Program-made: the position numbers and the translations under genes
Part shown: piece by piece, positions 3,450 to 41,000 of the stretch
Layout: each line of letters opens with the position of its first letter
Numbering within the stretch: the first letter of the stretch is position 1
Source of the DNA: a virus
IMG/VR virus record: IMGVR_UViG_3300043803_002519
Direction: 5' to 3' (one strand)
DNA: 64,000 bases
The notes under the pieces: generated by a model
What the model saw: only the letters and a program-made list of their open reading frames with translations
Told to the model about the DNA's origin: nothing
The model's database searches: none

Positions 3450-3649
3450 CCCGCACCGCCGCCGCCCTTGCCCGCCTCTCCAAGTACCTGCGGAAGGTGT
3501 TGCCCATCGGCCCCTACGCCCCGAGGCACTGGCTCGACACCGACCGCCGCGGGGAGTGGCTGCTGCCGGTGTGCGTGGCGCTGTGTCTGGCTGCCGTGTA
3601 CGTGCCCCTCTTCCTGCTGTTCCTACGTCTTGGAGACCGCCATGAGTGA
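3446..3649 (+). CDS. Membrane protein (67 aa)
   Basis: GTGA-coupled start. C-terminal TM segment LLPVCVALCLAAVYVPLFLLFL. Confidence 0.45.
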   Translation: MTRTAAALARLSKYLRKVLPIGPYAPRHWLDTDRRGEWLLPVCVALCLAAVYVPLFLLFLRLGDRHE

Positions 3650-25302: not shown

Positions 25303-26273
25303 CCCGCGAAGAAGCCAAGGCCGCGCTCATGGAGCGCGAGAAGCTGACTGCCGACGAGGCGGAGGCGCGCATCTCCGCATTCGAGATGAAGAAGCGTGGT
25401 GGGGGGGCGGCCCCGGTCGCGAAGCCCGCCGCGCGGCCGACCCCCGCCCCAGCGCCAGCCCCGGCCGCGCGGCCGACCCCCGCCCCAGCGCCGGCCGTAG
25501 CTCGACCGATGGCCCCCACGCCGGCGCCAGCCGTCGCGCGACCGATGGCCCCCACGCCGGCCATGACCGACAAGGCCCCCGCAGGGGGGTACACCGAGTC
25601 CGCCGGCGGGTACACGGAGGGCACGCCTGCCCCAGCTGCGAAGTACTACATGGACGACCCGGCCCCCGTGACGACTCGGGAGGGGAGGGCCGTGCGCCGG
25701 TGGCTGGACCACGGCGGGCAGGCTTCAATCGACGCGGCGAAGGCTGTGGGGCGAGGGGCGCAGTCGGCAGCGCGGGGCTTCCACCGCGCGGAGATGGACG
25801 CAGGCAAGGCCGCGCTCGGGGCGGGAAAGGAGATTCTGAAGGCCCCGCTGACCGTCTTGCGCGCAGGCGCCGGAATGGGGCATCAGATGCGGGAGCAGCG
25901 CGACCTGGCGCAGCAGAGCCGCAGACCGGCATTCGACCCGAAGGGCGTGGAGGAGGCGAAGAGCGTCCTTCGCGACGCCCTCGGCATGGCCCCCGCGGTG
26001 GACCTGCAGGGCTCACAGGGGCCGGACTACTACGACGAGTCCATCGCCGCCCCGCCCGCGGCGCCCGGACCCCGCCACGGGCCGGAGCGGCCTGCCTCCA
26101 GCGCCCCGCCCGCGGCGGGCCTCTCGGCGGAGGCGTTCGACACGCTCACCGAGGCGGATGCGTACCTCAAGCAGAAGGCCCCCCAGCGGGACATCAACGA
26201 GTGGGGCACCCCGGAAGAGCGCGTGACCGTGTACGAGTATCTCCGGACGAAGGACGCCGCGCGGAAGAGGTGA
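25299..26273 (+). CDS. Pro/Ala-repeat protein (324 aa)
   Basis: ATGA-coupled ATG at 25299 inside ORF 24924..26273. Duplicated ARPTPAPAPA and VARPMAPTPA units at about 25431-25560. Confidence 0.55.
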   Translation: MTREEAKAALMEREKLTADEAEARISAFEMKKRGGGAAPVAKPAARPTPAPAPAPAARPTPAPAPAVARPMAPTPAPAVARPMAPTPAMTDKAPAGGYTESAGGYTEGTPAPAAKYYMDDPAPVTTREGRAVRRWLDHGGQASIDAAKAVGRGAQSAARGFHRAEMDAGKAALGAGKEILKAPLTVLRAGAGMGHQMREQRDLAQQSRRPAFDPKGVEEAKSVLRDALGMAPAVDLQGSQGPDYYDESIAAPPAAPGPRHGPERPASSAPPAAGLSAEAFDTLTEADAYLKQKAPQRDINEWGTPEERVTVYEYLRTKDAARKR

Positions 26274-26285
26274 TAGACTGGGGGG

Positions 26286-29200
26286 ATGCCGAGCCCGCGA
26301 TCTCCCCAAGAAATCCTTGATGCGCTGGGGATGACCGAGGACGAGGTTCTCGGGCCCCTCCCGCCCAAGGACGCCGTCGAGCTCGCACCCGAGGACTACC
26401 GCGACCCGGAGGTCCTGCCCGTGGGCGAGGAGCCCCCGGAGGGTGGCGCGCGGACCCCGCGGGGTCGCATCGCCAAGGGCTACGCGAGTGCCGTCTACGA
26501 GGATGGGAACACTGCCCTCCGCTCGCTTCGCGGGGACGTGGCGGACCACCTCATCACCCAGGGGCTTGCCCCTGAAGACGCCAGGCTCACGGCCTACGAG
26601 GACACCCGGCACCTCGAGGCCACCGGCCACGTCGAGGACAGCGAGGACGCGGCCGACGCCATCCGCGCGCGTGAGGGGGAGCCGACCGTCGGCAAGGCCC
26701 TCACCATGGCGGTCAACCGCGTCACCCCCATCGGGCTGGACCAGGGCCCGGAGGAGTGGGGTCGCCGCGTCCGCGAGAACGAGAAGGCCACCTGGGGCGA
26801 GCGGTCCGACGCGCTCGGCAAGGCCTTGCAGGGCGAGGAGATCACCGAGGCGGACGCCAAGGCGGCGGGCATTGACCTCCCGCTCGTGCAAGAGCTCAAG
26901 AAGGCCTACGTCTCCCACTTCGGGGAGATGGTCTACACTGCCGGCTCGGCGGGCATCCTCCCGACCATCGGCTCCATCACGGGGCTGATTCCGGGCTGGA
27001 GCGACGTCGTCGAGCAGTCGGGCAAGAACCTCGAGGTGGCGAAGGAGGGGAAGAAGTATGTTACCTCCGAGGAGCTCGTCAAGATCGCCGCCTACGGCGG
27101 GGTCAACTCCCCCATCGGCGACGCCATCCCCTACATCGTGGATGCCGCGGTCGACTTCCATGACGTGGTCACCGGCGAGGACAAGCAGGGCAGGCTCCGC
27201 AGCGCGACCGGCGGGACCGTGGGGGACGTGTTCTGGGACTTCGTCTCCAAGGGCCGGCACAACGAGAAGTTCGACCCCGCGGCCAAGGCCCTGTACGAAG
27301 AGGGGGATGTCGCTGGCTTGGGGCAGCTGGGCATGGTCGACATCCCTGAGCACGTTCCGGCGGTCAAGGTTGACCTGCCGACGTTGAAGAGCGCCGTGGA
27401 GGCGGGGGGTCTGCTGGCCGAGGCGCCCGAAGCAGATCGGTTCCGGGTGGGGATGTCCAGTGGTCTGTCCGACGAGGTGCTCCAGACCCTCGCTGACGCC
27501 ATTCCTCTGGACGTGGTGCGCCGCGCGCAGCCGGACGCGGGCCCGACGTTGAAGTCCGTGCTCGCGGCCTACACGGCTCGCAAGAAGATTCAGGAGATCG
27601 TAGGCACCCCCGAGGCAGACGACGCCCTCAAGGTGGCCGCGGCCGCGCTCCACGACCGCGAGGTGCGGGAGGACGGCTCGGTGTACTTCGTGCCGTCCAC
27701 CACGCAGAAGGTCCTGACCGCAATCAATGCGGCCGTGCCTCTCGTCATCGAGGCAGATGTTCCCGTTCTCGGGCCCGTCGCCGGCGTCTACGGGGGCGTG
27801 CTCAAGGCCATGGGCTTCGAGAAACTCGGGGGCATGGCGGAGTCGGCGAGGTTCCCGACGGCAGCTGGCAACGAGTCCATGGTCGCTTCCGGCGACTTCG
27901 ATTGGGTCCTTGAGGGCATGGGCCTTCAGGGCAGCACCTCTTCCGAGCGTCGGCGCGACATCGGGGAGTCTCGGTACATCGACCGCGTGTTGGCCGACAT
28001 GCAACTGCCCCAGTACCAGAACTGGGGCCTGAAGGAGCTCGGCCGCGACCTTGGGGTGAAGCCGGGCTCCACGGCGGACGTGGCCCTCGGGACCGCGGAC
28101 CTTGGGGCGGACACCGTCGTGCCCTTCGAGGAGATGTTCCTCGGGCCCGCCGGCTCGGCGGTCACCATGGCCTCGCGCGCGGCGACGGCGGCGAAGCTCA
28201 GCAAGATGCTCGGGCGGAGCAACTCCCAGGCGGCACGCGTTGCGGTGCGAGCGGCGCTTCCCCAGTTCCTGGGCGGGTCGACGGATGCCGTCGCGGCCAT
28301 GGACGCGGCCCTGCGGACGGCCGTCGCCGACTCGGTGGCGGCGGGCGAGGTGCTCTTCACGGTTGGCCGCGGCGAGGACGCCGTGAAGGGGACGCTCTCC
28401 AAGGAGGTCCAGCGTGCCGTCGGCAACCTCCTCGAGGACGTGGGCATCCGCAAGGAGGACGTGTTTCGCACGGTCAACGACCTCTCCTTCGCGCAGAAGG
28501 CCAAGAACACCGTCATCGTGAAGGACTGGATGGCCCGGGGCACTCCCGAGCAGAAGGCCCTCCGCGAGACGGCGGAGTGGAAGGCGGTGCGACAGGGGCT
28601 GGAGGAGTCGGCCCCGCCAGAGGTCGTGGACGCTGGCATGGCGCTCAACGAGTGGATGGCGCACCAGGCAGTGGTGCTGGGCGAGTTCCGCTCCCCCAAG
28701 GACTGGTTCGCCGCGCAGCGCGTGGGCAAGGCCATCGACGGTGCCGCGCCTCCTCCGCCGCGCCCGACCACGGTCGCTGACGCCCTGCGCGCGGCCGCTA
28801 CGGATGCGGACGGCGAAGTGTCGGCAATGGCTGCGCGCCTCTTGGCGATGAACCATCCGGCGGTGACGTCCGCCGCGCTCGACGTGGGCGTGGACCTCGG
28901 GCCCGGCGTGCACGGCCGCTACGACATCGCGGACAACCACATCGTCCTGTCGCCGAGCGCGACCGCGAGCACCCTCGTCCACGAGGTGGCGCACGCGGTC
29001 ACGGCCCACGCCCTTCGCAACGTCGACACCCTGTCGCCCGCCGGTCGCAAGGCGGTGGCGGACCTGCAGGCCCTGTACGCCAAGGCCTCGGAGTCCCCCG
29101 ACCTGCAGGCCGTCGGCCTGGGTCTGGACAACCTCGACGAGTTCATCGCTGAGGCCTACTCCAACCCGGCCTTCCGCGCGGCCTTGCGGAAGGTGAAGGT

Positions 29201-32200
29201 CACCCCCACCAAGAGCGCCTGGCGGGTGTTCGTCGACACCGTGGGACAGCTCCTGGGTCTCAAGACCAAGCCTGAGCTCGACGCCCTCGACCGGACGCTG
29301 AGCAAGATCGAAGTCGTGGCCAAGGAGCGCGTGGTGCCGGGCCGCGGCGGAGGGTCTCTGGCTTCTCGGGCGGCGCTGGTCAAAGACCCGCCGGCCCCGG
29401 AGCCCCCCGACGTTCTTCCAGAGCGGCACCCCGCCGACACCTGGGCGGACGTCCGCGGTCCCATTGGGTGGTGGATGCCTCTCGACGAGGTCGAGTTCCG
29501 CATCGGTCAGATGGCGGAAGAGCACGCCATCTTCTTCGACCGCGAGGGGCGCCAGATTGCGCGCTTCGGGCCGGAGGACACTCGTCGGGACGCCCCGGGG
29601 TACGATCCTGCCACCGCGTGCATCATCTACCCCAAGGCGCTGGACGACCTCGCGGCCTCGGGTGGCGGGGTCTACACCCACAACCACCCCAGCGGCAGCG
29701 CCCCGTCCATCGACGACGTTCTCGTGGCACGTCGCGGGAACGTGGACGCACTGCGCGCTGTCGCACGGAACGACGGATTCACCTGGGTCGTTCGCCGGCC
29801 AGAGGCGGGCTGGCCAGAGACCGATGTGTTGCGAAGGGCGTGGAAGGACCTCGCGCACACCGTGTACCTGTCTGCCAAGAAGCGCATGGACGCCCGCATC
29901 AAGGCTGCGGGGGGGAACCTCTGGGAGGGCGACCGGGCGGCTGGCTTCTCTGAAACCGTATGGAAGGAGTACCTCACGAATGGCTACGACACCCACTGGG
30001 CCGAATACTTCGGGGACCTTGGCATCGTCCTCGAGCGGGAACGGCACCCCCATCTTGGTCAACTCGGACTGGACGCCCCGGTACGGGGAGCCGCTGGTGC
30101 TCCCGGAGCCGGACCCGCAGTTGCTGGAGCCACCGAAGCGGCCCGCTACCCCGCCGTCGGAGTAGGCGAGCAGGGCAGGCTGTTCTCCCGTGCTGCGCCG
30201 GAAGGCGGCACTGTTCGGAAGGGCCGGCTGGGTTCGGACCTCCCCCGACTGCTGGACCTGCTCGGAGCGAGCATGTACTCCAAGCCGCTCGCAGAGGTGG
30301 CTGTCAAGGAGTTGGTGCAGAACGCATTCGATGCAATCAAGGCCACTGCCCGCACGGATGGGCAGATTCACGTCACCCTGAACGCCCAGGAGCGCACCCT
30401 CTCGGTGGCGGACAACGGCAAGGGGATGACCCCGGAAGTCGTGCAGGACGCGCTGTTCACGGTCGGAGGAACCAACAAGGAGGGGCTCGCCGTGGGAGAC
30501 CGCTCGGGCGGGCTGGGGTTGGCCAAGATGGCCTTCCTGTTCGGGTCCGAGTGGGTCGATGTGGACACGGTGCATGGGGGGGTTCGCACCCGCGTTCACG
30601 CCACGTCGGCGCAGATCAAGGCCTCCGACTTTGACATCGTGACTGAGCCTGCCCCCGGCGCGCCCAACGGAACCAATGTCACTCTCAAGATTCCGGAGAC
30701 GTACCGAGACCCTGCCTCTGGAGCGGACCGCACCATCTACCTCTTCAAGGAGCAGATGACGAGCGAGCAGGGGTCGGGGGTGCTGGACAGGCCGCTTTTC
30801 GGGAACGTCGAGGTCCTGTTCACGGAGGTTCCGCGGTACGGAACGCCGTCAACCGCCACGCTGCCCGTTGGCAGGAACACTGACCCGCTCGCAACCCCCC
30901 TCCTGACCCGCGCAGCGTTCGACTGGGGCTCCGCGGACGTCTACATGGGGGACGCCCGGAAGAAGTACCCCCGGCACCGAGTACTGTCTGCGGGACTGCA
31001 TCAGTTTGATACTGCCATTCTCGCAGGTAACGAGCGCATCCCCTACGACATCGTAGTTGACATTCGCCCGGGAGTGGACCCGCTCCACCCACACTACCCG
31101 TTCAACAACCAGCGGGAGGGGTGGCGCGGTACGGTCGAGGCCGACGTCAAGGCCCTGAACGGCTACATCGCCAAGCACTCCAGCGGCCGCGCCGCCGCAG
31201 AGACGTCGGACGTGTTCAAGGGGGCCGTCACGATGCCCCGTGTGGCGCCCGACGACCTGGATGTCGGAGCGGCCGCTCCCGCGGCTGTGAAGGCGTTTGC
31301 GCCGAAGGCTCCCCCTTCTCCACCCCCCGAGGGCGCCGCGGCCCCGAGGGCGCCCGACGTAATCAAGATCAGCGCCGGCGCTGTGGCCCCTTCGGTATCG
31401 GAGCGGGCGGCCCCAGACAGCTTCCGTCCCGAGAGGGCGGCCCCCGACCTTCAGTCCTTCGTCGGGTCCGTGGCCGTGGACCCCCTGAAGCCGCTCTTCC
31501 ACAACAACACGGGAGTCGACTACATCGGCGCGGTGCGGGCGGCGCTGCCTGGCGCCGAGCCCGAGCGGTTCCTCGCGGAGATGGGGTCGCTGGTCCTCGA
31601 CTTCAAGGAGGCCGCGGCCAAGCAGGACAAGTACGGTCTGGCCGATCTGGTCTCGTTGGAGAACCCCTACGCTGCAGGCATCTCCATCGACAAGGACTAC
31701 CGAGGGGTTCACGTCAAGGTCCCGTACCGCGCGTTCTTCCTGAATCCCCTCGCGGCCACCAACGAGACCGCGTCGGGCCTTGCGGAGAGCATGCTCCACA
31801 CGCTGGTCCACGAAGTGGCGCACACGACCGTGATGGCGCACAACGAGAACTTCGCTCTCGCGCTGGCGGACGTTTACGACCGGCTCGGAGACTCCGGGGA
31901 CACAGACATCTTCCGGGCGCGGCTGCGGAAAATACTGACGCGGCACCAAGACACCTTCAACGAGATGAGGCGCATCTATGACAGCCCCCGCACAAGCAAT
32001 CTCCGAGGCGCTCTGGAAAACGGCGAGCAGCTTTCCACCCGAGGAGCGCCCGGCCCAGGTGAAGGCGGCCCTGGAGCAGCACCTGGAGATGCTGCAGCAG
32101 TCGGGGGGCTCGACGGAGATGCAGGCCCCGCTCGTCGAGGCGTTGGAGAGCCTTCTGCTCGAGAACTGATCGAGGCGGCTCTGCCGGGTCTCTCCGGGCA

Positions 32201-35200
32201 CGGGAACGCCGCGCGGCCGGGTCCGCTCTACTCCCGCGCGGCCCCGGCCCCCTCGGCAGTCCCGAAGCCGTCGCTTCCTGAACCCACCGACGAGGTGCGT
32301 CGAGCGCATCAAGCCCTCGTCGTCAAGCGACTGCTGTCGCCGAGCGCAGAGACGCGCGCGGCGCACCAGGCGTACCAGGCGGAGCACCCCGAGGTGCTTG
32401 CATGGGCGGAGTACCGGGCGGCTGTCGCCGACGCAGAGTTGGCTCAAGCGCGCGAAGCTGCCCGCGCGGAGTACGAGGCCGGAGCCCCCGCCCGTCAGGC
32501 TGCAGCGGACGCGAAGGCGGCACGGTATGCGGACGCGAAGGCGACCGGAAAGAAGCTGCCCCCGGAAGAGCGGGCGATGAATCGTCGCGAGTGGTTCGGG
32601 GACTCCGCGGTGACGACCACGGGCGAGGCCGGTGGGAAGCCGCTGGTCGTCACGCACGAGTCGCCGTCAAAGTTCTCGGAGTTCCGGGCAGGGGAGTTCG
32701 GCTTTCACTTCGGGGTCGGCATCCCCGACGGGATGTTCGGCAGCAACCGGGTGTCGGGGCTGCTCCGCATCAACAACCCGATGCGGATGGCTGACCTCGG
32801 GGTGTGGACGCCGGAGCGGGTCCTTGCGGAGGGCGGGTTCAGCACCGCGGAGCAACCGCGCCTGCTGGCGGAGGTTGAACGGATTCGGGCGGAGGCGGAC
32901 GCGCCGACGAAGGCCATGGTCGCGAAAGCACGGGCTTCTGGAGACGTGGCCACGGCCGAGAAGTGGCAGGCCCTCTTGGAAGATGGCAGCGATGCGGCGA
33001 CCTTCCGCGACCGCCGCGGGAACTACCTGGCGAGCCGGCCGGTGCATGACGCCCTCCGCGAGAAGGGCTACGACGGCATCGTGTACCGCAACGAGGCGGA
33101 GGGGGTCGACGACTCCTACATCGCCTTCGAGCCGCAGCAGTTCAAGTCGAACAAGAACGTCGGGACCTACGACGCCACCGACCCCCGCTTCCTGTACAGC
33201 CGCGCCGCGCCAGCCCGCGCCGCCGAGGAGGCGGCCGAGCCCCTGCCCGTGTTTCGATCTCCTGCCGCCACAGAGCAGCGCTGGCATCGGATTGGCGACG
33301 ACCATCAGTACACCGAGTTGACCATCTCCCCTGAGGGGGCGCTGGACCCGTCGTTGCCGAGCTACGCGAAGCGGGGAAGGATGTCCAGCGGTCGCGGGAC
33401 AGGGTTCGCCTCTGGCATGTACGCATTCGCTGACGCGCGCCAGGGGACGGTTCCCGTTCTCCCCGCCCGGAACCCCCTGACGCTTCGGTCGTGGGGGCTT
33501 GAGGTGCCCAACGCGGCGGCCGAGTTCCAGCGGGATGCGTCGTCTCTCCTGTTCCTCGCGGAGCGCCTTCGCGACCTGTCTCCGGCGAAGCGCGCAGAGG
33601 CCATCGATCTGTTGCGCGCGAGGGTGTCCTCCTCCTTCGAGGAAGTGTACGACGCCGAGAAGCGCCTTGCCTCCCCCGAGTTCGGCATTGGTCGGGGTGT
33701 GTTTGGCGGGGAGCCCAAGTTCCCGTCCGACCTCGCGACCGCCCTTGACCCCCTCCTCTCGCGCTGGCGGAGGGTGGGTGTGCCTGCGGGCCTCGACGGA
33801 GCCGGCACGGTGGACGCGCTGATCGATGCGGCGGCGACGTGGGGCAAGCACCAGCATGTCCACCCGGTGAACATCCTGCTGAGTCGAATGGGCCACGACG
33901 GCATCGAATGGGCGGGAGGGGCGCTCAAGGAAGGCAACACCGGCGCCCACGGCTTCGTCAAGTTCCCGCCCATCACCGCAGACGGCGCTCTCGTTGACGT
34001 CGTTCCAGACCCTCGTCATGGCTACGCGGTGACGCACGGTGGGCGCGACCCGCGGGTGCTGTACTCCCGCGCCGCGCCAGCCCGCGCCGCCGAGTACCGC
34101 GGTGTAGACGGCAAGCCCCGCACCGCCACCATGTTCAGCGGCGGTGGGCTGGTCGAGGCGGGTCTCCGCAAGTACATCGACCCGGTGTTCGCGGTCGAGG
34201 TGAGCCCTGAGATCGGAGCCGCGTACAAGGCGGCCCACGGCGACCACGTCCGCATCGACGACGTCCGCAACGTCGACCTCGGCGAGGCTGGCGACGTGGA
34301 CTACCTGCACGCCTCCCCGGTCTGCAAGAACTTCAGCGCCGCCAAAGCCGTCACGGAGTCCGGTGAGCAGCCCCTGGACCTTGAGACGGCTCGGGCCACC
34401 GCCGACGCCGTCCACCGCACCCAGCCCGCGGTCTTCACGCTGGAGAACGTGCGGGGCTACCAGGGCACCGAGGCCATGGGGCTGGTCGAAGCCGCGCTCC
34501 GCGAGGAGGGCTACACCTTCGACGCCAACGTCTACGACGCGGCCGACTACGGCGCGGCCACCCGACGCAAGCGTCTGCTGCTCCGGGCGGTGAAGGACGG
34601 GGACCTCCCCCCGGTCCCGGCGCCCACGCACGGGCCCGGCCGGGCGCAGCCCTACGCCGACTGGTACGCCGCCGTTGAGGACCTCGTAGATGACCTGCCC
34701 GACGACGTGGTCCCCCCGTGGATGCGACGGCGCCTCGAGGCGGCGGGGATCGATCCCGACGCGCCGGCGAAGCCCACCATCGTCATGGGCGGCAGCGCTG
34801 GGAAGAACGTGCCCTACGCGGAAGCGGGGGGGCCTGCCCCCACGTTCAAGGCCACGCCGGGCGAAGCGCACCGCATCATCTTCCCCGACGGGCGGGTCAA
34901 GCGGGTCACGCCCCGCGCAGCCGCTCGCATCACGGGCCTGCCTGACGACTACCCGCTGCCCACCAAGAACGCGACGGCGACGACGGTCATCGGCAACGGC
35001 GTGCCCCCGGCCCTGAGCGAGGCGGTGTTCGCGCCGCTCTTGGCGGGCGACCATGTGCCGGGGACGCTCTACTCCCGCGCGGCGCCTATTGAAGACGCCG
35101 CGCCCGGCATCGTGGCCCTCCGCAAATACATGCTGGATGCGGCCGGCGACGATACGGCGTTCGACGCCAAGGTCTACGCTGAGCGCAAGCAGGTCTGCGC

Positions 35201-38200
35201 GTTGACCGGGCACTGCAACGCGGCGGCGTACATCGTTCAGAAGCGCTACGGCGGCGAGCTTCTGAGTGCGAAAGTCGACGGCGAAACGCATGTATGGAAC
35301 CGGCTCGCCGACGGCACCGAGATCGACCTCACCGGTTCGCAGTACGGCGGGGACGGGTTTCACCCGGTAGCGAAGAATGGAAAGGTGGTGCCACTGCGAT
35401 CCACGGTGAACCCGCGGTTTGCAGCGTTTGAAGACCGCGTGGCCGCTGCGGAGCTGCGCGCTGCGCGCGACCCTCGGTTCCTCTACTCCCGCGCCCCCGG
35501 CAACCAGACCGACACGCCCGCCTTCCAGCGCTTCATCGAGGGCACCAAGGCCGTGGACGAGGACGGCGCGCCGAAGCGGCTGTACCACGGCACCACGCAC
35601 GACTTCGAGGCCTTCGACGCGCAGAGTGGGAACGTCGAGAACCACCACGGCCGTGGCATCTACCTGACCTCGTCGGAAGGCGACGTCGGGTCCAACTACG
35701 CCACCCGCGAGGGGCCCGACCTCAAGAGCCGCATCGAGTCCCAGATGGAGTCCCTCCTCGACGTCTGGGACGACCCCAGCGTGGCGCAGGACTTCGTCGA
35801 GCGGTGGCTGGAGGCGCACCCTGAGCGCGCCGCCGAGGGCGAGCGGCTGGTCCAGGTGCTGGACGACGGGGGGAACCCCGACGCGAATCTCTTGCAGGAG
35901 ATCACTCGGTGGGTAGCCGAGCAGGAGATTGCTGGCTCGCACGGGGGCGCAGTCCTGCCCGTCTACGCCGCCATCAAGAACCCCGTCGATTTGCGGCCCG
36001 GCAAGGTGACACGCTTCGACATCGAGACGAAGTGGTCCGAGGACGGTGAGGACTTCCTCGGCGAGACCGGGGCCGGCGTGGAGGCCATCGACGCCATCCG
36101 CCGCATGGCCAACTCCTCCGACACGGCGGACCTGATCATCGAGGCGCTCGGGGACATCTCCGAAGGGTTCGACGCCGCTGACCTCGAGCGCGCAGTGCGG
36201 GACAACTCCATCGAGTTCCTCGACGACGACTCTTCAGCGGGGCAGTTCCTTCAGGACGTCTACCGCGAGCTGGGCTTCGACGGCATCGTCATCGACGCCT
36301 ACAAGACCTTCGGCCCCCGGCGCGCAGGGTGGGGGGTAAACCTCCCCGGCATGGCGGGGCTGACCCCCGGCACGGAGCACTGGGTCGCCTTCGAGCCCAC
36401 CCAGGTCAAGTCCGCCACGGGCAACCGCGGCACGTTCGACCCGAAGGACAAGCGCCTCTTGTACAGCCGCGCGCCTGACGGCCCGACGTGGACCGCCGAG
36501 CCCCCGCCCCCGGGCGACAAGGTCCCCGGCATCGTCGACAACCCCGCCCACGCGGCTTGGTCCAAGACGAAGCGTGACCTTGCGAAGGATGTCGCGGACC
36601 TCGAGGACGCGGAGCTATCCGCGTGGTGGGAGCACTACGGGCCCTCTCCGGACGCGCCGACGGTCGCGCCCAGGCCGAAGAACTTCGCCGAGGCTCAGGC
36701 CTACTGGACCGAGCACGGCGACGACCCGGCGGAGTTCCCCGAGCCCTCCCCCGAGCTCTCTGCGAAGCTGCAGGCCCTCGACGATGCCAACGCCGCGCCC
36801 GAGCCCTCGCGCACCACCGCAGGCTTGGTGAACGACCCGGCCCGCGTCATCGTCCGCTACTTCAAGACCGCCAACATGCAGGCCCTGCTCGAGCAGAACG
36901 CTCAGGTCATCCGCATGCTGCTCGGGGAGAAGTGGGCGGGCGACCTCATGCGCTTCTTCGACCACGAGGTCGACACAGCCTCCGGCCAGGTGCGCCTCAC
37001 GAAGAAGGGCGAGGAGCAGTTCAACGTGGCCCTCGCCCGCGTCCTGCGCGGCGACCTCGCGCCCCGCGGCCGGGTGCGGGCGTACTTCGAAGAGCTCCGC
37101 GATGCGCTGAGCGACATCTGGCTGAACCTCCGCGGCAAGCCCATGTCGCTGCCCCCCGGCTTCCGCCAGTGGTGGGACGCCACCCTCGACCCGGCCAAGC
37201 ACCTCCGCGCCCGGGTGAAGGTCTCCGACGAACGCTTCGGGCGCCAGCCGCTCGAGGTCAACGTCACCGTGAAGGCGAACGACCCCGACGCTCCCCCGCC
37301 GCCGGACCCCACGCGCCTCGGGCGGGAGCTCGCCGACGTCACGGACGTCATCTACCGAGAGGACTTCAAGCGCGCCAACGCTCTGCACGAGTACTGGAAC
37401 CTGCCCCTGACGCCCGGGCAGAAGCGCCACGCCCTCGGCATCCTGGGCAGCGACACCGACGTGGATGCTGTCGAGGCCGTGGCCAAGGCCATCGCGCTCC
37501 TCGGCACGACGCAGGCCCGCCGCCGCTGGGGCTTCTCCGGCAAGGTGGTGCGGGTGGGTCGGCGCAGCCAGGTCTCCGAAGACCGCAAGGAGAGCGTGCT
37601 GAAGCGCGCCCGCGAGGCCTTGCACGGGGCCATCGGCGGCGACGTGGTGGCCGCTCCCGACGGCGGGGTGACCCTCACCCCCGAGCAGGCCAAGGGCCTC
37701 GCCGCACACCTCGACCACCTCGTGGACGCCGGGTGGGGCGAGCAGCTGCCGGACGAGTTGATCAGTCCGCAGAAGGACCTCACCAAGCTGACCGAGCAGG
37801 AGTGGTCGGACATCGCCAACACCACGGTCGACGACGTGGCGGGCCCTGGCAGCTACCGCGACCGCCAGGCCGACCGGGTCGTGGGCAACGCCGCGGAGAG
37901 CCTCCTCGGCCGCGCGGTCGACGCACTGTCCACCGTGCCCATCTTCAACGGCGTGCGCCGGAAGCTGACCGAGGCCTTCGACACGACCTTCGCCGGCAGC
38001 AAGAACATCAACCCCGCCGTGGCCGAGGTGGTGGACGGGTGGCGTCGCGAGTTCAGCGACGTGGCATCCCAGATTGCCCGCCTTCGTGAGCATGTTCGCG
38101 CGGGCACTGCAGACGAGACGGCCGAAGTCCTGATTCGGAAGATTGCCAAGGAACTGCCCGCCGTGGGCCCCGACCCCAAGGTGGTCGACGACCTGGTGGT

Positions 38201-41000
38201 GCTGAACCGCGCCCTCAACCCTGAGGGGGACGTCACGCCGACCGTGCAGACCTTCCTCGACAACAAGGCCGCACTACGCGCGCTGTTCGACGCGACGCCG
38301 GCCCACGGTCCCGCGGGCATCGTCGAGGCCGACGCGCTCCCCCGCCTCCTCCGCCTCGACGCGACGTCGGACATCAAGGACCCGGTCATCGCCGCGGCGA
38401 TTGAGGTGATCCAGACCGGCATCCGCCGACGCTACGAGGCGGTGCGTGACACCGGCCTCCGCATCGAGCAGCGTATGTCCGGCCGCGCCGACCTCGGCGT
38501 GGCGACGGGCGACCCCAACCTCCCCATCAACGCCTACAAGCTGTGGTACGCGGGCAAGTACCAGGAGCTCGCCGCTCAAGCCCAGCGCCGCGGCCAAACC
38601 ACCGACCCAGGCAAGTCCGGCGCGTCGGGGAGCTCGAGCGACGCGGCGGGCCTCGTGTTCGACCCAGTGTCCGGCGCCCTCGCGGTGGTGACGGGTCTCC
38701 TCGCCGACGGCGTGCTGGCCTCGGCGGCGGCCGATATGATGCGCCTCGGCCTGCCGGTGCACACCGACAGCGTCAACTTCGGCGGGCGCAACTTCGACCA
38801 GTGGGTGCCGCTCGGCAGCACCTCGATGTCCCGGGCGAAGTACCGGGCGCTGGTGCAGGAGTACATGAACGCCATCCTCAGCTTCCAGGGTTCGCAGTCC
38901 AAGCAGTTCAACGAGGCGCGGGAGTTCGTGGGGACCGAGATGCTCCCGGTCCAGGTGTCGGGGCTGAACGATGGAAAGTTCGACCCGTCCGCCTGGGCAG
39001 ACGCGCACCGCATCCTCGACTCTTGGGGCATCAAGAGCAACACCTCCGGGATGGAGACGATGGTCCTCCCGACGGGCGAAGAAGTGTTCATGCCCAAGAT
39101 CATCAAGGACGAGCTCACCGGACTCTTCGACCGCACGGCGAAGGCTGGGCTCCCCTGGACGAAGTCGGCGGAGGGCGAGCCCGACAAGATTCTCGGCCGG
39201 TTCGGCGAGTTCGTGGACGGGAGGCTCTACCCCAACAACAACCTCCAGTACAAGGGCAAGGGGAGCCTCGCCGACAACGTCAACATCGCCGTCCGGACGA
39301 TGGTCAACATCCCCGGCCGCACTCTCGCCATGGCGCGGGTCGGCGTCACCACGGGCGTCGGCATCCCCAACCCCGCCTTCTACATCGGCAACGTCTTCGG
39401 CGGCCTCCTGCAAGCCGTCCAGAGCAAGGGCGCTGTGGGCACGGCGCGAATGCTGGGCCGCTACCTGCCCGGCGTCGGCGGAGATGCCGGCAAGGTCCTC
39501 CGCAGCGTGTTCTGTCGGGTGTGGGGCGACTCTCAGGGCTACTTCAAGCCTGCTTCGGGGTCGTTCATCGCCGACAACGGCGCGGTCATCAGCGACGACT
39601 TCATCACCAAGACCGTGGTCAAGTACGGTCTGCACACGTCGCAGCCGCGGGCCGAGTCGGCCATCCGCATCATCGACGACCTTCGCAACCATGAAGGCAC
39701 GTTCTGGACGCGGGTGAAGCGCGACCGCATCTTCGACGTGCCGCTCCTCGGCACTGCGGAGAGCGCGGTCCGGACGGGCGTGTCTACGACCTTCCGCTAC
39801 TGGCAGGGCATCCTCGGAGACGCAGCCACCGCAGTGGACGACCTCTTCCGCGTGGCGACCTACGTCGACGAGCTCGCCGGCGGGGTCGCCCCGGCCGAGG
39901 CCGCCGCCGTCGCCCGCCGCACTTCCTTCGACTACGCTGACCTCACGGACTTCGAGAAGGAGCACCTGCGTCGGTTCATCATGTTCTACACCTTCCAGCG
40001 TCGCAACGCCGACCTGTTCTGGTGGACGATGCTGAACCACCCTTCCCGCATCATGGGCCAGGTGCGTGCGGTGCGGGACGCGCAGGAGCACTTCCTCGGA
40101 GAGGACGACTCCGAGAGCATCCTCCCCGAGCACCTCGACGGGCGCCTCATCATCGGGATGCGGAAGACTCTCGGCGACGAAGCGGCCCTGCGGGGCTCCC
40201 TCGGCACGATGACCGTCGCACCTCCGCTCCCGGCGATGGACCACCTCGGGCTGTGGGTCTCCATCTTCCGGTCCTTGAACAGCGACGAGCCGCGGGGCGG
40301 GCGCGAGATCATCTCCCGCCTGGCCCCCGAGTACCAGGCGCCGTTCGTCCTCGGCCTGGAGGTCGACATCTTCTCCGGCCGCGACCTCGCCGCCTTCAAC
40401 ACTGTCCCCTCGTGGATGGTGGAGATGGACCGCCAGATTTCCGGCGGGGCCATGGTCGACGACCTGTTCAAGGTCCGCAAGACGGAGAACAGCGACCCCT
40501 CCCGTGACGAGGCCCCCGGCGTAGATCGCTGGGAGCCCACGGGAGAGGGCGCGAAGTGGTGGTGGGTCTTCCGCAACCTCGTGCAGGTCCCGCCGTTCGG
40601 CCGGGGCACCGATACCATCACCCAGATGGCTCGGGCGGACTGGATTGTCGGGGACGTCGTGAACGGTGCCCGGTGGTATCGAGCCACTCAGGGCCCCGTG
40701 GGGGCCATCCGCGACAACCTCACCGACCCCTTCTTCCGCAGCGTGGTCCGCCCGATGATGGACGCCCTCCCTCACGTCGACCCTTCGGCGGTGCAGGTCT
40801 ACGAGCCCCCGGCCATCGTGGAGGACCTCAACATTGAGCGCGCCGGCTACACGCCGGGCCTTGAGGCCGCGCAGCTGTTCGGCGTCAAGAGCGTCATCGT
40901 ACCGACGGCCGCCATCGCGGCGGACGAGGACGAGGTAGGTCGCCGTCGCCGCATCAGCACCGCGGCCTCCGAGGAGCGGAAGCGCGACCCCTACCGGTAG
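26286..41000 (+). CDS. Giant multi-domain polyvalent virion protein (4904 aa)
   Basis: A single uninterrupted ORF of 14.7 kb with coding-like composition throughout. It carries the enzymatic motifs listed as sub-features below and sits inside the structural module. Confidence 0.9.
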   Translation: MPSPRSPQEILDALGMTEDEVLGPLPPKDAVELAPEDYRDPEVLPVGEEPPEGGARTPRGRIAKGYASAVYEDGNTALRSLRGDVADHLITQGLAPEDARLTAYEDTRHLEATGHVEDSEDAADAIRAREGEPTVGKALTMAVNRVTPIGLDQGPEEWGRRVRENEKATWGERSDALGKALQGEEITEADAKAAGIDLPLVQELKKAYVSHFGEMVYTAGSAGILPTIGSITGLIPGWSDVVEQSGKNLEVAKEGKKYVTSEELVKIAAYGGVNSPIGDAIPYIVDAAVDFHDVVTGEDKQGRLRSATGGTVGDVFWDFVSKGRHNEKFDPAAKALYEEGDVAGLGQLGMVDIPEHVPAVKVDLPTLKSAVEAGGLLAEAPEADRFRVGMSSGLSDEVLQTLADAIPLDVVRRAQPDAGPTLKSVLAAYTARKKIQEIVGTPEADDALKVAAAALHDREVREDGSVYFVPSTTQKVLTAINAAVPLVIEADVPVLGPVAGVYGGVLKAMGFEKLGGMAESARFPTAAGNESMVASGDFDWVLEGMGLQGSTSSERRRDIGESRYIDRVLADMQLPQYQNWGLKELGRDLGVKPGSTADVALGTADLGADTVVPFEEMFLGPAGSAVTMASRAATAAKLSKMLGRSNSQAARVAVRAALPQFLGGSTDAVAAMDAALRTAVADSVAAGEVLFTVGRGEDAVKGTLSKEVQRAVGNLLEDVGIRKEDVFRTVNDLSFAQKAKNTVIVKDWMARGTPEQKALRETAEWKAVRQGLEESAPPEVVDAGMALNEWMAHQAVVLGEFRSPKDWFAAQRVGKAIDGAAPPPPRPTTVADALRAAATDADGEVSAMAARLLAMNHPAVTSAALDVGVDLGPGVHGRYDIADNHIVLSPSATASTLVHEVAHAVTAHALRNVDTLSPAGRKAVADLQALYAKASESPDLQAVGLGLDNLDEFIAEAYSNPAFRAALRKVKVTPTKSAWRVFVDTVGQLLGLKTKPELDALDRTLSKIEVVAKERVVPGRGGGSLASRAALVKDPPAPEPPDVLPERHPADTWADVRGPIGWWMPLDEVEFRIGQMAEEHAIFFDREGRQIARFGPEDTRRDAPGYDPATACIIYPKALDDLAASGGGVYTHNHPSGSAPSIDDVLVARRGNVDALRAVARNDGFTWVVRRPEAGWPETDVLRRAWKDLAHTVYLSAKKRMDARIKAAGGNLWEGDRAAGFSETVWKEYLTNGYDTHWAEYFGDLGIVLERERHPHLGQLGLDAPVRGAAGAPGAGPAVAGATEAARYPAVGVGEQGRLFSRAAPEGGTVRKGRLGSDLPRLLDLLGASMYSKPLAEVAVKELVQNAFDAIKATARTDGQIHVTLNAQERTLSVADNGKGMTPEVVQDALFTVGGTNKEGLAVGDRSGGLGLAKMAFLFGSEWVDVDTVHGGVRTRVHATSAQIKASDFDIVTEPAPGAPNGTNVTLKIPETYRDPASGADRTIYLFKEQMTSEQGSGVLDRPLFGNVEVLFTEVPRYGTPSTATLPVGRNTDPLATPLLTRAAFDWGSADVYMGDARKKYPRHRVLSAGLHQFDTAILAGNERIPYDIVVDIRPGVDPLHPHYPFNNQREGWRGTVEADVKALNGYIAKHSSGRAAAETSDVFKGAVTMPRVAPDDLDVGAAAPAAVKAFAPKAPPSPPPEGAAAPRAPDVIKISAGAVAPSVSERAAPDSFRPERAAPDLQSFVGSVAVDPLKPLFHNNTGVDYIGAVRAALPGAEPERFLAEMGSLVLDFKEAAAKQDKYGLADLVSLENPYAAGISIDKDYRGVHVKVPYRAFFLNPLAATNETASGLAESMLHTLVHEVAHTTVMAHNENFALALADVYDRLGDSGDTDIFRARLRKILTRHQDTFNEMRRIYDSPRTSNLRGALENGEQLSTRGAPGPGEGGPGAAPGDAAAVGGLDGDAGPARRGVGEPSARELIEAALPGLSGHGNAARPGPLYSRAAPAPSAVPKPSLPEPTDEVRRAHQALVVKRLLSPSAETRAAHQAYQAEHPEVLAWAEYRAAVADAELAQAREAARAEYEAGAPARQAAADAKAARYADAKATGKKLPPEERAMNRREWFGDSAVTTTGEAGGKPLVVTHESPSKFSEFRAGEFGFHFGVGIPDGMFGSNRVSGLLRINNPMRMADLGVWTPERVLAEGGFSTAEQPRLLAEVERIRAEADAPTKAMVAKARASGDVATAEKWQALLEDGSDAATFRDRRGNYLASRPVHDALREKGYDGIVYRNEAEGVDDSYIAFEPQQFKSNKNVGTYDATDPRFLYSRAAPARAAEEAAEPLPVFRSPAATEQRWHRIGDDHQYTELTISPEGALDPSLPSYAKRGRMSSGRGTGFASGMYAFADARQGTVPVLPARNPLTLRSWGLEVPNAAAEFQRDASSLLFLAERLRDLSPAKRAEAIDLLRARVSSSFEEVYDAEKRLASPEFGIGRGVFGGEPKFPSDLATALDPLLSRWRRVGVPAGLDGAGTVDALIDAAATWGKHQHVHPVNILLSRMGHDGIEWAGGALKEGNTGAHGFVKFPPITADGALVDVVPDPRHGYAVTHGGRDPRVLYSRAAPARAAEYRGVDGKPRTATMFSGGGLVEAGLRKYIDPVFAVEVSPEIGAAYKAAHGDHVRIDDVRNVDLGEAGDVDYLHASPVCKNFSAAKAVTESGEQPLDLETARATADAVHRTQPAVFTLENVRGYQGTEAMGLVEAALREEGYTFDANVYDAADYGAATRRKRLLLRAVKDGDLPPVPAPTHGPGRAQPYADWYAAVEDLVDDLPDDVVPPWMRRRLEAAGIDPDAPAKPTIVMGGSAGKNVPYAEAGGPAPTFKATPGEAHRIIFPDGRVKRVTPRAAARITGLPDDYPLPTKNATATTVIGNGVPPALSEAVFAPLLAGDHVPGTLYSRAAPIEDAAPGIVALRKYMLDAAGDDTAFDAKVYAERKQVCALTGHCNAAAYIVQKRYGGELLSAKVDGETHVWNRLADGTEIDLTGSQYGGDGFHPVAKNGKVVPLRSTVNPRFAAFEDRVAAAELRAARDPRFLYSRAPGNQTDTPAFQRFIEGTKAVDEDGAPKRLYHGTTHDFEAFDAQSGNVENHHGRGIYLTSSEGDVGSNYATREGPDLKSRIESQMESLLDVWDDPSVAQDFVERWLEAHPERAAEGERLVQVLDDGGNPDANLLQEITRWVAEQEIAGSHGGAVLPVYAAIKNPVDLRPGKVTRFDIETKWSEDGEDFLGETGAGVEAIDAIRRMANSSDTADLIIEALGDISEGFDAADLERAVRDNSIEFLDDDSSAGQFLQDVYRELGFDGIVIDAYKTFGPRRAGWGVNLPGMAGLTPGTEHWVAFEPTQVKSATGNRGTFDPKDKRLLYSRAPDGPTWTAEPPPPGDKVPGIVDNPAHAAWSKTKRDLAKDVADLEDAELSAWWEHYGPSPDAPTVAPRPKNFAEAQAYWTEHGDDPAEFPEPSPELSAKLQALDDANAAPEPSRTTAGLVNDPARVIVRYFKTANMQALLEQNAQVIRMLLGEKWAGDLMRFFDHEVDTASGQVRLTKKGEEQFNVALARVLRGDLAPRGRVRAYFEELRDALSDIWLNLRGKPMSLPPGFRQWWDATLDPAKHLRARVKVSDERFGRQPLEVNVTVKANDPDAPPPPDPTRLGRELADVTDVIYREDFKRANALHEYWNLPLTPGQKRHALGILGSDTDVDAVEAVAKAIALLGTTQARRRWGFSGKVVRVGRRSQVSEDRKESVLKRAREALHGAIGGDVVAAPDGGVTLTPEQAKGLAAHLDHLVDAGWGEQLPDELISPQKDLTKLTEQEWSDIANTTVDDVAGPGSYRDRQADRVVGNAAESLLGRAVDALSTVPIFNGVRRKLTEAFDTTFAGSKNINPAVAEVVDGWRREFSDVASQIARLREHVRAGTADETAEVLIRKIAKELPAVGPDPKVVDDLVVLNRALNPEGDVTPTVQTFLDNKAALRALFDATPAHGPAGIVEADALPRLLRLDATSDIKDPVIAAAIEVIQTGIRRRYEAVRDTGLRIEQRMSGRADLGVATGDPNLPINAYKLWYAGKYQELAAQAQRRGQTTDPGKSGASGSSSDAAGLVFDPVSGALAVVTGLLADGVLASAAADMMRLGLPVHTDSVNFGGRNFDQWVPLGSTSMSRAKYRALVQEYMNAILSFQGSQSKQFNEAREFVGTEMLPVQVSGLNDGKFDPSAWADAHRILDSWGIKSNTSGMETMVLPTGEEVFMPKIIKDELTGLFDRTAKAGLPWTKSAEGEPDKILGRFGEFVDGRLYPNNNLQYKGKGSLADNVNIAVRTMVNIPGRTLAMARVGVTTGVGIPNPAFYIGNVFGGLLQAVQSKGAVGTARMLGRYLPGVGGDAGKVLRSVFCRVWGDSQGYFKPASGSFIADNGAVISDDFITKTVVKYGLHTSQPRAESAIRIIDDLRNHEGTFWTRVKRDRIFDVPLLGTAESAVRTGVSTTFRYWQGILGDAATAVDDLFRVATYVDELAGGVAPAEAAAVARRTSFDYADLTDFEKEHLRRFIMFYTFQRRNADLFWWTMLNHPSRIMGQVRAVRDAQEHFLGEDDSESILPEHLDGRLIIGMRKTLGDEAALRGSLGTMTVAPPLPAMDHLGLWVSIFRSLNSDEPRGGREIISRLAPEYQAPFVLGLEVDIFSGRDLAAFNTVPSWMVEMDRQISGGAMVDDLFKVRKTENSDPSRDEAPGVDRWEPTGEGAKWWWVFRNLVQVPPFGRGTDTITQMARADWIVGDVVNGARWYRATQGPVGAIRDNLTDPFFRSVVRPMMDALPHVDPSAVQVYEPPAIVEDLNIERAGYTPGLEAAQLFGVKSVIVPTAAIAADEDEVGRRRRISTAASEERKRDPYR
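28860..29180 (+). other. Domain of the giant ORF: zincin-like metallopeptidase 1
   Basis: LVHEVAHAV (H899-E900-xx-H903), followed by NLDEFIAEAY. Confidence 0.6.
29470..29810 (+). other. Domain of the giant ORF: RadC/JAB (MPN)-like
   Basis: AEEH...GGVYTHNHPSGSAPSIDD matches the JAB signature E...HxHPSG..PSxxD (H1132-N-H-P-S-G). Confidence 0.65.
30240..30700 (+). other. Domain of the giant ORF: GHKL (HATPase_c-type) ATPase
   Basis: N box KELVQNAFDA, G1 box VADNGKGMT, G2 box GGLGLAKMAF. Confidence 0.65.
31650..31980 (+). other. Domain of the giant ORF: zincin-like metallopeptidase 2
   Basis: HTLVHEVAHTTVMAH gives HExxH plus a third His at metzincin-like spacing (H1842, H1846, H1852). Confidence 0.5.
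32244..33185 (+). other. Domain of the giant ORF: ART-like / polyvalent-associated module ending in GYDGIVY...FEPQQFKS
   Basis: VVTHESPSKFSEF...FGFHFG near the start and GYDGIVYRNE...IAFEPQQFKSNKNVGTYD at the end. The resemblance to ART-type modules of polyvalent proteins is from memory only. Confidence 0.35.
34110..35060 (+). other. Domain of the giant ORF: DNA cytosine-5 methyltransferase
   Basis: Motif I MFSGGGL, motif IV ASPVCKNFS, motif VI LENVRG, motif VIII TRRKRLLL, motif X GNGVPP, in canonical order. Confidence 0.85.
35085..35471 (+). other. Domain of the giant ORF: small Cys/His module
   Basis: CALTGHCNAAAYIVQKRYGG...THVWNRLADGTEIDLTGSQY. It vaguely recalls YunG-type small proteins; this is unverified. 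Confidence 0.25.
35496..36455 (+). other. Domain of the giant ORF: ART-like module 2
   Basis: LYHGTTHDFEAFD...GIYLTSSEGDVGSNYA at the start and GFDGIVIDAY...VAFEPTQVKSATGNRGTFD at the end. Confidence 0.4.

Follow-up and report, generated by a model that had tools for sequence, protein, structure and literature searches.

Closest described systems

Polyvalent proteins were defined in 2017 as single polypeptides that carry several unrelated, mostly enzymatic domains, 2-15 or more in number (Iyer, Burroughs, Anand, de Souza and Aravind; PMC5512222). The same work gave the name 'MPTase' to the zincin region of the N4-like virion RNA polymerase (vRNAP), and predicted that polyvalent proteins are delivered with the DNA and processed by such MPTase zincins (PMC5512222). 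Here, we describe a gene in a 64,000-nucleotide (nt) stretch of viral DNA, IMG/VR record IMGVR_UViG_3300043803_002519 (the window, meaning the whole stretch that was analysed), in which one open-reading frame (ORF) on the plus strand, at positions 26286..41000, encodes a giant protein of 4904 amino acids (aa). Its cassettes are separated by a repeated short peptide, and comparison with related phages revealed that cassettes are gained, lost and replaced at these junctions.

Among podovirus ejection proteins, PhiM1 gp48, the equivalent of T7 gp16, is packaged above the portal and leaves the capsid by ejection, and its gene adjoins that of the tail fibre (PMC11440229). In N4 gp50, the C1 subdomain with its HExxH motif spans residues 2124-2375 and is followed by a ~110-kDa helical C2 without a structural homologue (PMC13434306), and the N4 vRNAP, with the same type of HExxH domain, is packaged unprocessed (PMC5512222). 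Polymorphic toxins such as CdiA ('VENN') and Rhs ('PxxxxDPxGL') resemble the window protein in combining a conserved chassis with variable effectors and a short demarcating peptide at which recombination takes place. In Rhs, this peptide is also the cleavage site. The MuF toxins belong to the same group and are associated with the phage head (PMC5576092).

The giant protein shares with the polyvalent class its unrelated enzyme domains, the ART-PolyVal type of ADP-ribosyltransferase (ART), an MPTase-like zincin, a DNA methylase, a putative JAB/RadC-like domain and a gene that lies among late, virion genes, and at the level of sequence it is a phage-type polyvalent protein in the sense of PMC5512222. 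The original prediction, made from the letters of the window, had read it in this way, and the reading held, with many unrelated enzyme domains, ART-PolyVal, a zincin of the N4 vRNAP type and a gene lying among virion genes. It differs from the described class in that RadC was restricted there to proteins of conjugative elements, whereas the JAB cassette here lies in a phage protein, and in that its methylase is of the C5 type rather than part of an N6A methylase-helicase dyad (PMC5512222). A term search of PMC5512222 found neither HSP90-like GHKL nor YunG domains; the words linker, boundary and interdomain never occur in it, and no description of a junction motif was found there or in later literature. 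A lineage-specific junction peptide at every cassette boundary appears to be undescribed, as do the combination of a fixed N-terminal domain with a C-terminal anchor shared by more than 1600 proteins and direct comparative evidence that whole cassettes have been acquired, deleted and swapped at the junctions. The original prediction missed the most informative feature of the locus, namely its recurring LYSRA junctions, at which cassettes are exchanged.

The polymorphic toxins, in contrast, carry a single variable C-terminal tip and an immunity gene, whereas here an internal array of up to nine cassettes lies between two constant ends, the motif stands at every boundary and the most conserved part is the C-terminus; there is no sequence relationship, and the resemblance is functional only. 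No small immunity-like gene was evident after the cassettes, since all of them lie in one ORF.

Junction peptides and cassette exchange

Seven copies of the junction [LF][YF]SRA[AP] are present in the giant protein, at aa 1299, 1981, 2303, 2592, 2928, 3066 and 3392, against 0.02 expected from composition shuffles, and the motif was found nowhere else in the six frames of the 64-kb window. Each copy sits between independently recognisable domains, and every cassette of the array closes with such a peptide, set in a flexible linker. The parts of the protein follow in order, with modules numbered M and junctions numbered J.

26286..41000, plus strand: whole giant ORF, ATG start, 4904 aa, stop codon at 40998-41000
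26286..28265, plus strand: constant N-terminal domain, aa 1-660, which keeps this terminal position in at least 16 family members
28761..29354, plus strand: HExxH-899 zincin-like cassette, aa 826-1023, a C1-type domain with HEVAH at nt 28980-28994
29355..29372, plus strand: degenerate junction SLASRA, aa 1024-1029, with pLDDT <50 in the AlphaFold2 (AF2) model
29373..30179, plus strand: JAB/JAMM-like cassette, aa 1030-1298, with E1078, HNHPSG at aa 1132-1137, and S..D
30180..30194, plus strand: J1, LFSRA, aa 1299-1303
30195..32225, plus strand: M2, aa 1304-1980, with an HSP90-like GHKL ATPase (aa 1337-1471) and the HExxH-1842 zincin-like region (HEVAH at aa 1842)
32226..32240, plus strand: J2, LYSRA, aa 1981-1985
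32241..33191, plus strand: M3, aa 1986-2302, predicted ART-PolyVal-type ADP-ribosyltransferase
33192..33227, plus strand: J3, LYSRAAPARAAE, left copy of a 36-nt direct repeat around M4
33207..34058, plus strand: M4, aa 2308-2591 (284 aa)
34059..34094, plus strand: J4, LYSRAAPARAAE, right copy of the 36-nt direct repeat around M4
34074..35066, plus strand: M5, aa 2597-2927, C5 cytosine DNA methyltransferase (MTase)
35067..35081, plus strand: J5, LYSRA, aa 2928-2932
35082..35480, plus strand: M6, aa 2933-3065, YunG family (PF24585, E=2e-14, 54 bits against a cut-off of 27)
35481..35495, plus strand: J6, LYSRA, aa 3066-3070
35496..36458, plus strand: M7, aa 3071-3391, ART-PolyVal ADP-ribosyltransferase (LYHGT ... 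GIYLTS ... AFEP)
36459..36473, plus strand: J7, LYSRA, aa 3392-3396, conserved as ILHSR in the family member P0001
36474..40997, plus strand: M8, conserved C-terminal anchor, aa 3397-4904

The junctions have the character of linkers, with flanks rich in Pro, Ala and Gly; MTase motif I begins 20 aa past J4 and motif X ends ~20 aa ahead of J5, and in the AF2 model of aa 826-1298, the two junction-bearing linkers are the sole low-confidence stretches. At the degenerate SLASRA site, P0004, another family member, has LYSR and the related contig L071 has LYSE, and similarity to both relatives stops there. The junction Ser is encoded by TCC in five copies and by AGC in two, and this use of two Ser codon families places the constraint on the peptide and not on the DNA.

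Junctions of this kind recur among the proteins that share the C-terminal anchor. In six of these, [LFMR..][YF]S[RK] was observed 9, 8, 8, 7, 7 and 6 times against 0.7, 0.6, 0.7, 0.8, 0.8 and 0.4 expected, respectively, and in two others [LM]F[QE][RT] was observed four times against 0.1 and three times against 0.3. The motifs are uniform within a protein and lineage-specific between proteins (LYSR, [LR]FSRR, LFQR). One and the same MTase cassette has LYSR at its flanks in the window phage and P0008, PLFQR in P0056 and P0028, and L[LR]SS in P0016. Co-evolution of the sites with a recognition factor would produce such uniformity within proteins and divergence between lineages, and so would recombination that always resolves in the junction of the recipient; the two can act together. 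Among these anchor-bearing proteins, the junction core has become a general terminator that differs by lineage.

We considered whether the junction is simply part of the ART fold, since ART-PolyVal domains in unrelated viral polyvalent proteins commonly end in the tail '...QIKSATGNRGTFDPKNPDI[RT][YFK]S'. This was rejected: in 40 IMG/VR proteins, there is one such tail for each ART domain and none behind other domains, while the junction core here also follows five non-ART modules. As the core follows these five modules and is lacking from the M7-type ART of Myxococcus phage Mx1, the junction is an autonomous element. A second short motif, 'GSIEP', stands 6-12 residues past the junctions in many family members (e.g. 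LHSRTGPTIHGSIEP, LFQRTPTGIHGSIEP; P0001, P0008, P0024, P0056, P0011, P0004) and is absent after the junctions of the window protein.

Exchange of cassettes was followed by comparing the window with L071 and L070, two related contigs from independent marine metagenome assemblies that carry orthologues of the giant gene. At the DNA level, the window and L071 are 98.7% identical over M3, 87.0% over the MTase and 97.8% over M7 plus anchor (the anchors being 98% identical), while M4 and M6 are absent from L071, its JAB and M2 region is replaced by other sequence including two ARTs, and M5 of the window is a divergent allele. Against L070, which also lacks M4 and M6, M3 (96.4%) and M7 (92.1%) are near-identity islands in a backbone of 65-71%. 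The same contrasts appear in third-position identity at conserved codons, with 93.7% for M3, 88.4% for M7 and 55-66% for the backbone against L070, and with 81% for the MTase and 98% for the anchor against L071. These contrasts at synonymous sites rule out differential constraint and demonstrate recent cassette exchange.

The limits of the exchanged blocks coincide with the junctions. The Leu codon of LYSR-1981 (J2) opens at nt 32226, and a high-identity block shared with both L071 and L070 begins on this very base; the 97.8% block shared with L071 likewise begins on the opening base of the Leu codon of LYSR-3066 (J6), nt 35481. None of the 11 DNA breakpoints is more than 12 aa away from a junction (chance P~5e-16). 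M4 is bracketed by the 36-nt direct repeat, whose copies match at 33/36 bases and differ only in the Ser codon (AGC vs TCC), and L071, which is without M4, carries a single repeat copy at the position of M4. We are practically certain that cassettes have been gained, lost and replaced between related phages at the junctions, and exchange exactly at these points makes the junction the unit boundary of a combinatorial system.

The position of the breakpoints on junction-coding DNA, together with the repeat around M4, also suits a different reading, in which the giant protein is a packaged polyvalent protein that stays intact and L[YF]SRA marks linker ends and recombination joints rather than protease sites. 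It gains from the N4 vRNAP, which has the same HExxH domain and is packaged unprocessed, from the inactivated zincin of the anchor in the window phage, and from P0016, which has junction-like motifs and no HExxH. However, with a core motif of no more than 15 nt, two unrelated families of Ser codons in use and several synonymous differences in J1, the evidence points to selection on the peptide and not to DNA homology; the motifs are uniform per protein and lineage-divergent around the same cassette, a pattern expected from co-evolution with a recognition factor; and HExxH is over-represented in the family, being present in 47/68 giants against 6% expected by chance. We consider an intact protein rather unlikely on this balance, and regard cleavage at the junctions, the reading we develop below, as close to an even call.

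The gene, its modules and the anchor family

The original prediction had taken the 14.7-kb frame as a single uninterrupted gene, and no frameshift or stop that splits it is indicated. The ORF contains 4904 codons with zero internal stops, and its G+C contents at codon positions one, two and three (GC1/2/3) are 0.71/0.49/0.88 overall, with GC3 between 0.73 and 0.94 in every 200-codon block; this uniformity gives no sign of a hidden frame change. The G+C content of the window is ~70%, at which long spurious ORFs are common, and the giant ORF shows the codon-position signature of real genes, while the antisense ORFs inside it do not. Long antisense ORFs lie at 26013-30599 (1528 aa), 32667-35942 (1091 aa) and 38274-40775 (833 aa), all on the minus strand, and, lacking the GC3 coding signature, are artefacts of 70% G+C. 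The ATG start is supported by conservation of the N-terminus with P0004. In L070, a Tara scaffold recovered in two samples, the orthologue is an ORF of 4881 aa, with an N-terminal alignment that begins at the first Met, and in L071 it is an ORF of ~4.7-4.8 k aa broken only by a scaffold run of N; this gap is the apparent split, and a reading of L071 as two genes was rejected. With uniform GC3, two independent assemblies in agreement and the L071 split explained by the gap, an artefact or frameshift origin was also rejected, and the giant ORF is a real gene. A 6-kb contig, L069 (ENA ERZ1300416 NODE_17556), carries JAB, ART-PolyVal and DNA_methylase segments called as separate short genes; its coverage is low (1.35x), so the probable cause is fragmentation or a frameshift of a giant ORF rather than a true split.

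At least eight distinct modules were found, four of which exceed Pfam gathering scores (DNA_methylase, ART-PolyVal, YunG and HATPase_c_3). Profile searches, as proposed in the original prediction, supported most of its motif calls and added YunG. The C5 MTase that it had called complete scores 106 bits against a cut-off of 22 with PF00145 and matches phrog_116 (E=1e-47) and, in the PDB, M.HhaI and DNMT1; motifs I (FSGGG), IV (SPVCKNFS, a P-V-C variant common to the homologues), VI (ENV), VIII (RRKR) and X (GNGVPP) are present, and the score against TIGR00675 is below the cut-off of that model. The GHKL ATPase was likewise borne out, with 38.6 bits against a cut-off of 25 for HATPase_c_3 and complete N (ELVQNAFDA), G1 (DNGKGM) and G2 (GGLGLAK) boxes; its nearest relatives are the N-terminal domains of HSP90/TRAP1 (NCBIfam HSP90 family, E=7e-13). 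At least two ART-like modules had been expected, and two were recovered: M7 scores 76 bits against a cut-off of 31 with PF18760, and M3 matches Pfam ART-PolyVal over its C-terminal half only, below cut-off (E=5.9e-6), while sequence comparison relates it to M7 (E=5e-7). The idea that M4 might be a third ART was rejected at the sequence level (E~0.1), and this cassette has no Pfam, PHROG or PDB match and no homologue among the 150 best family members. Homologues of the M6 YunG domain are found in P0016, also directly after the MTase, and in P0087.

Homologues of M7 occur in Myxococcus phage Mx1 and a Tunturiibacter phage. The Mx1 protein WNM70333.1 (L075 2120-6559, annotated 'NUDIX hydrolase') is a small polyvalent protein of 1480 aa with a YunG-like N-terminus, an M7-type ART-PolyVal and a NUDIX domain; it lies among nucleotide-metabolism genes and has no LYSR-type junction, and a similar gene is present in Tunturiibacter phage Tunturi_5.

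Two motif calls were supported in part. The two HExxH motifs had been called zincins, and HExxH-899 stands by homology to solved ejection proteins (below), while HExxH-1842 is less strongly supported, by sub-threshold matches that are all to minimal zincins (Zincin_1, WLM, YgjP) and by conservation of the motif in P0004 at 28% identity; P0004 shares the whole M2 arrangement of GHKL followed by a second zincin-like region. The HNHPSG motif had been assigned to a RadC/JAB domain, and the signature E...HxH-x6-S-xx-D is kept in seven homologues down to 31% identity, at differing positions in their proteins; no Pfam RadC or Prok-JAB match appeared even at E<=10, and the spacer is six residues rather than the seven of HxH-x7-S-xx-D. 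The AF2 model of aa 826-1298 is confident (pLDDT 79), and Foldseek gave weak but specific matches for the JAB domain to JAMM1 (5ld9, prob 0.82, E=0.37), AMSH-LP, STAMBPL1 and dCMP deaminases, none at E<=1e-3, and sub-threshold matches for the HExxH-899 domain to anthrax lethal factor and abylysin. The Pfam MPTase-PolyVal model has no match in the giant protein, a Pfam and NCBIfam scan found no RNA polymerase (RNAP) family in it, and the N-terminal 660 aa have no Pfam or PDB match. A word-indexed homology search with module 1 gave no match.

The original prediction had listed about 1500 aa as having no recognisable catalytic motif. The C-terminal ~1500 aa are not featureless and proved to be the conserved anchor of a family, starting with a zincin-like domain. 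A word-indexed search with the C-terminal 1507 aa returned a single homologue, and an exhaustive HMMER search returned 1619 metagenomic matches, 91 of them at E<=1e-30, and almost every match occupies the very C-terminal end of a giant protein, 2000-7833 aa in length. Within the anchor, two parts were distinguished.

36783..37235, plus strand: anchor-N, zincin-like domain, aa ~3500-3650
39273..40997, plus strand: anchor core, aa 4330-4904, the part with the highest conservation, predicted by AF2 to be mainly alpha-helical

The largest member, of 7833 aa, is encoded at 1270-24771 of L072 (Logan SRR8811963) and has the same anchor and a DNA_methylase match, and P0028, P0060, P0057 and P0068 are other members of 5000-7000 aa. 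With a family that reaches 7833 aa, the size of the window protein is ordinary and not unusual as had been thought; PMC5512222 cites a 12,242-aa example. Among the 150 best matches, the N-terminal ~660 aa are conserved and N-terminally fixed in at least 16 proteins, and HExxH-899, JAB, both ARTs, the MTase and YunG recur at varying positions in other members. The relatives scanned with Pfam proved to be polyvalent as well: P0004 has ART-PolyVal in three stretches and GHKL, and P0066 has an ART and a PBECR5 nuclease. By these comparisons, the family keeps its head and its anchor constant and varies the array of cassettes between them. It is a large family, and neither its conserved N-terminal domain nor its C-terminal anchor has a Pfam or PHROG model.

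In anchor-N of the window phage and L071, the zincin motif reads LLEQNAQVI (aa 3534-3542, nt 36885-36911), with H, E and H all replaced (EQxxQ for HExxH), while P0004, whose anchor is 65% identical, and P0001 keep LLHENAHLI. HExxH is retained in ~30/44 aligned members, and about a third have lost it independently; the consensus context is '...GSIEP...F.TGD..TLLHE.GHLL...GD.W...FDH...LT..GEEQ.AEA'. Profile matches of anchor-N to zincins are sub-threshold hints only, and hhalign aligned it with the HExxH-899 cassette over 31 columns at E=5e-4 and a probability of 31%. The AF2 model of the anchor core (pLDDT 67, pTM 0.66) has no PDB match, nor has its sequence; in BFVD, it matches the C-terminal pieces of many phage 'large polyvalent protein' entries, and it has weak fold matches (E=0.25-1.2) to N4-like vRNAPs, in the C-terminal third of these proteins.

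A module homologous to ejection proteins, probable packaging and possible cleavage

The HExxH-899 cassette links the giant protein to proteins that travel in the virion. Its family profile matches, in the PDB, an 'internal virion protein' (9sfn_G, E=2e-19), PhiM1 gp48 (8vb2_A, E=1e-9) and a virion RNAP chain (11fw_A, E=5e-7), and it matches phrog_2206 at E=9e-12, confined to profile positions 1947-2247 of 3406. By tblastn, it matches aa ~2159-2302 of the vRNAP of the N4-like phage PG11, a region that corresponds to the C1 HExxH subdomain described for N4 gp50. As in the podovirus ejection proteins (T7 gp16 / PhiM1 gp48, 8vb2; 9sfn_G), the giant protein appears to be the largest of an internal-protein gene set, its gene lies beside a tail-fibre-like gene, and it has the homologous HExxH domain. 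It differs from PhiM1 gp48 in being 3.7 times longer, only the ~190-aa HExxH module being detectably homologous, and from the T7 gp16 class in that its passengers are cytoplasm-directed enzymes and include no cell-wall hydrolase. The lytic transglycosylase of T7 gp16 is a precedent for an enzymatic passenger in an ejection protein. The plan also resembles that of N4 gp50, a giant single chain, packaged and ejected, with an N-terminal domain, a cargo region, and C1 (HExxH) followed by a large helical C2 (PMC13434306), since the anchor likewise has a zincin-like domain and then ~1200 residues predicted to be mostly helical, its homology to C2 being unproven (Foldseek E=0.25); in contrast to N4 gp50, the window protein has no RNA polymerase domain, and its cargo is an exchangeable enzyme array. 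A tie between polyvalent proteins and podovirus ejection proteins plus N4 vRNAP was not found in PMC5512222 or later literature.

The genes around the giant ORF that could be assigned are as follows.

5415-7598: large terminase subunit (TerL), by homology search
17002-19077: P22-type 'phage stabilization'/tail-hub-like protein
41076-42068, plus strand: tail-fibre-like gene directly downstream of the giant ORF
49423-50655, plus strand: stand-alone C5 cytosine DNA MTase (PF00145, E=4.6e-48), with canonical TPCQAFS and ENVPG

The window phage is very distant from any isolate, its TerL being at most 33% identical to GenBank phages. No close isolate relative of the giant gene was found among GenBank phages at the nucleotide or protein level (megablast and tblastn, the anchor being without a match), and anchor relatives were likewise not found in GTDB genomes. 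Most neighbours of the giant ORF have no Pfam or PHROG match; no homologue was detected for the upstream 843-aa and 347-aa proteins, and the 843-aa protein was considered as a gp15-class protein and gave no match. The product of 41076-42068 has no more than its first ~41 aa in common with its counterparts in L071 (95%), L001 (54%) and L070 (50%), and is otherwise unrelated to them; an N-terminal adaptor that is kept while the sequence behind it varies is typical of an exchangeable tail fibre or receptor-binding protein. A short segment encoded by the next gene but one is also found in minor tail proteins. The opposite strand of the window encodes DNA polymerase A, a D5-type primase-helicase and a PD-(D/E)XK nuclease, and no tRNA was found in the window. 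The stand-alone MTase is a second C5 enzyme beside the cassette of the giant ORF, whose motif IV (SPVCKNFS) is unusual; one of the two may serve immediate protection from within the particle and the other methylation during replication.

Homology of HExxH-899 to capsid-packaged ejection proteins and the location of the gene directly upstream of a tail-fibre-like gene, as for T7 gp16 and PhiM1 gp48, together strengthen the case for packaging and ejection, and from these comparisons we consider the giant protein very likely to be packaged in the virion. It might instead be a cytoplasmic multi-enzyme protein, late or early, that is merely encoded inside the structural module, as could be suggested by neighbours that mostly resist annotation and by the related small polyvalent protein that Mx1 encodes among nucleotide-metabolism genes. 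This we regard as very improbable, given the homology of HExxH-899 to solved capsid-packaged ejection proteins and a virion RNAP, the fixed position of the giant gene next to the tail-fibre-like gene in three related contigs, the similar same-strand arrays in which giant homologues at distant loci are found, and the typically late, virion-linked nature of phage-type polyvalent protein genes (PMC5512222).

If the junctions are cleaved, the protease need not be part of the giant protein. Prohead proteases commonly trim internal proteins of phages, the Dar proteins of P1 are processed before packaging and cis zincins are not universal in the family, so the junctions could be cut in trans by a prohead maturation or host protease, either at head assembly, as for P1 DarA/DdrB, or after ejection, with no part for the cis zincins. 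However, a Pfam scan of 20 structural-module ORFs found no protease, prohead protease included, and the motif is absent from all other ORFs and frames of the window, including the capsid-module genes that a prohead protease would normally cut. To our knowledge, T7-like and N4-like podoviruses lack prohead proteases. We judge cleavage in trans improbable.

In the reading that we prefer, the product of the giant ORF would be the largest of the internal (ejection) proteins in a podovirus-like marine phage. It would correspond in position to T7 gp16, PhiM1 gp48 and N4 gp50, and would be packaged through its conserved ends and ejected together with the DNA. A zincin in the same polypeptide would then recognise the junction peptides, and cleavage would free the enzymes; since the anchor's own zincin is inactivated, the candidate protease here is HExxH-899 and/or HExxH-1842. 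Before any phage gene is expressed, the freed C5 MTase would methylate the incoming DNA, as P1 DarB does, and the freed ARTs would modify host proteins, as T4 Alt does. Conserved junction-coding DNA, selection for intact sites, or both, would keep recombinants in frame. DarB and Alt are analogues in their predicted roles, namely protection of incoming DNA in cis and ADP-ribosylation of host proteins just after injection; DarB is an N6A methylase-helicase and Alt an R-S-E ART from a separate gene. The MTase and ART activities of the window protein are predicted, as is an anti-restriction role.

Packaging, ejection and cleavage are inferred in this reading, and several observations weigh against it. 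The N4 vRNAP is unprocessed despite its HExxH domain, and a domain of this type is thus not necessarily an active protease; the anchor motif is destroyed in the window phage, the two HExxH modules that remain are themselves mobile cassettes, and P0016 bears junctions without any HExxH. The fold evidence for the zincin and JAB domains is sub-threshold, no convincing transmembrane segment was found in the giant protein, and the anchor, the N-terminal domain and the upstream 843-aa protein have no match to any solved ejection protein; in particular, the anchor as a T7 gp16-like or other solved ejection protein was not supported, as no PDB match was obtained. The junction could also be conserved purely as a recombination joint or linker. 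Weighing these points, we find it fairly probable that the giant protein is an enlarged podovirus ejection protein which serves as a polyvalent effector array, with junctions that are probably protease sites. More tentatively, and a little below an even call, we propose that such proteins are effector polyproteins, a conserved ejection chassis with plug-and-play cassettes that each end in a lineage-specific peptide, this peptide being both the cleavage site of a zincin in cis and the joint for in-frame exchange.

The locus links polyvalent proteins to podovirus ejection proteins and the N4 vRNAP. For the self-processing predicted in 2017, no cleavage sites had been defined before, and there had been no experiment on it; the locus offers recurring candidate cleavage sites (L[YF]SRA, with the cut proposed between R and A), proteases that are candidates for the task, and related phages that vary naturally by entire cassettes, and with these the prediction becomes directly testable. 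By swapping cassettes, a phage can re-equip its presumably injected "first-strike" enzyme set, which is a mechanism for fast adaptation to host defences. The rules of the junctions could also guide the engineering of phages that deliver chosen enzymes. If the proposal is true, these proteins would unite a virion-delivered counterpart of polymorphic toxins with polyprotein processing as viruses practise it, and with more than 1600 metagenomic members they would form a widespread system that is as yet undescribed.

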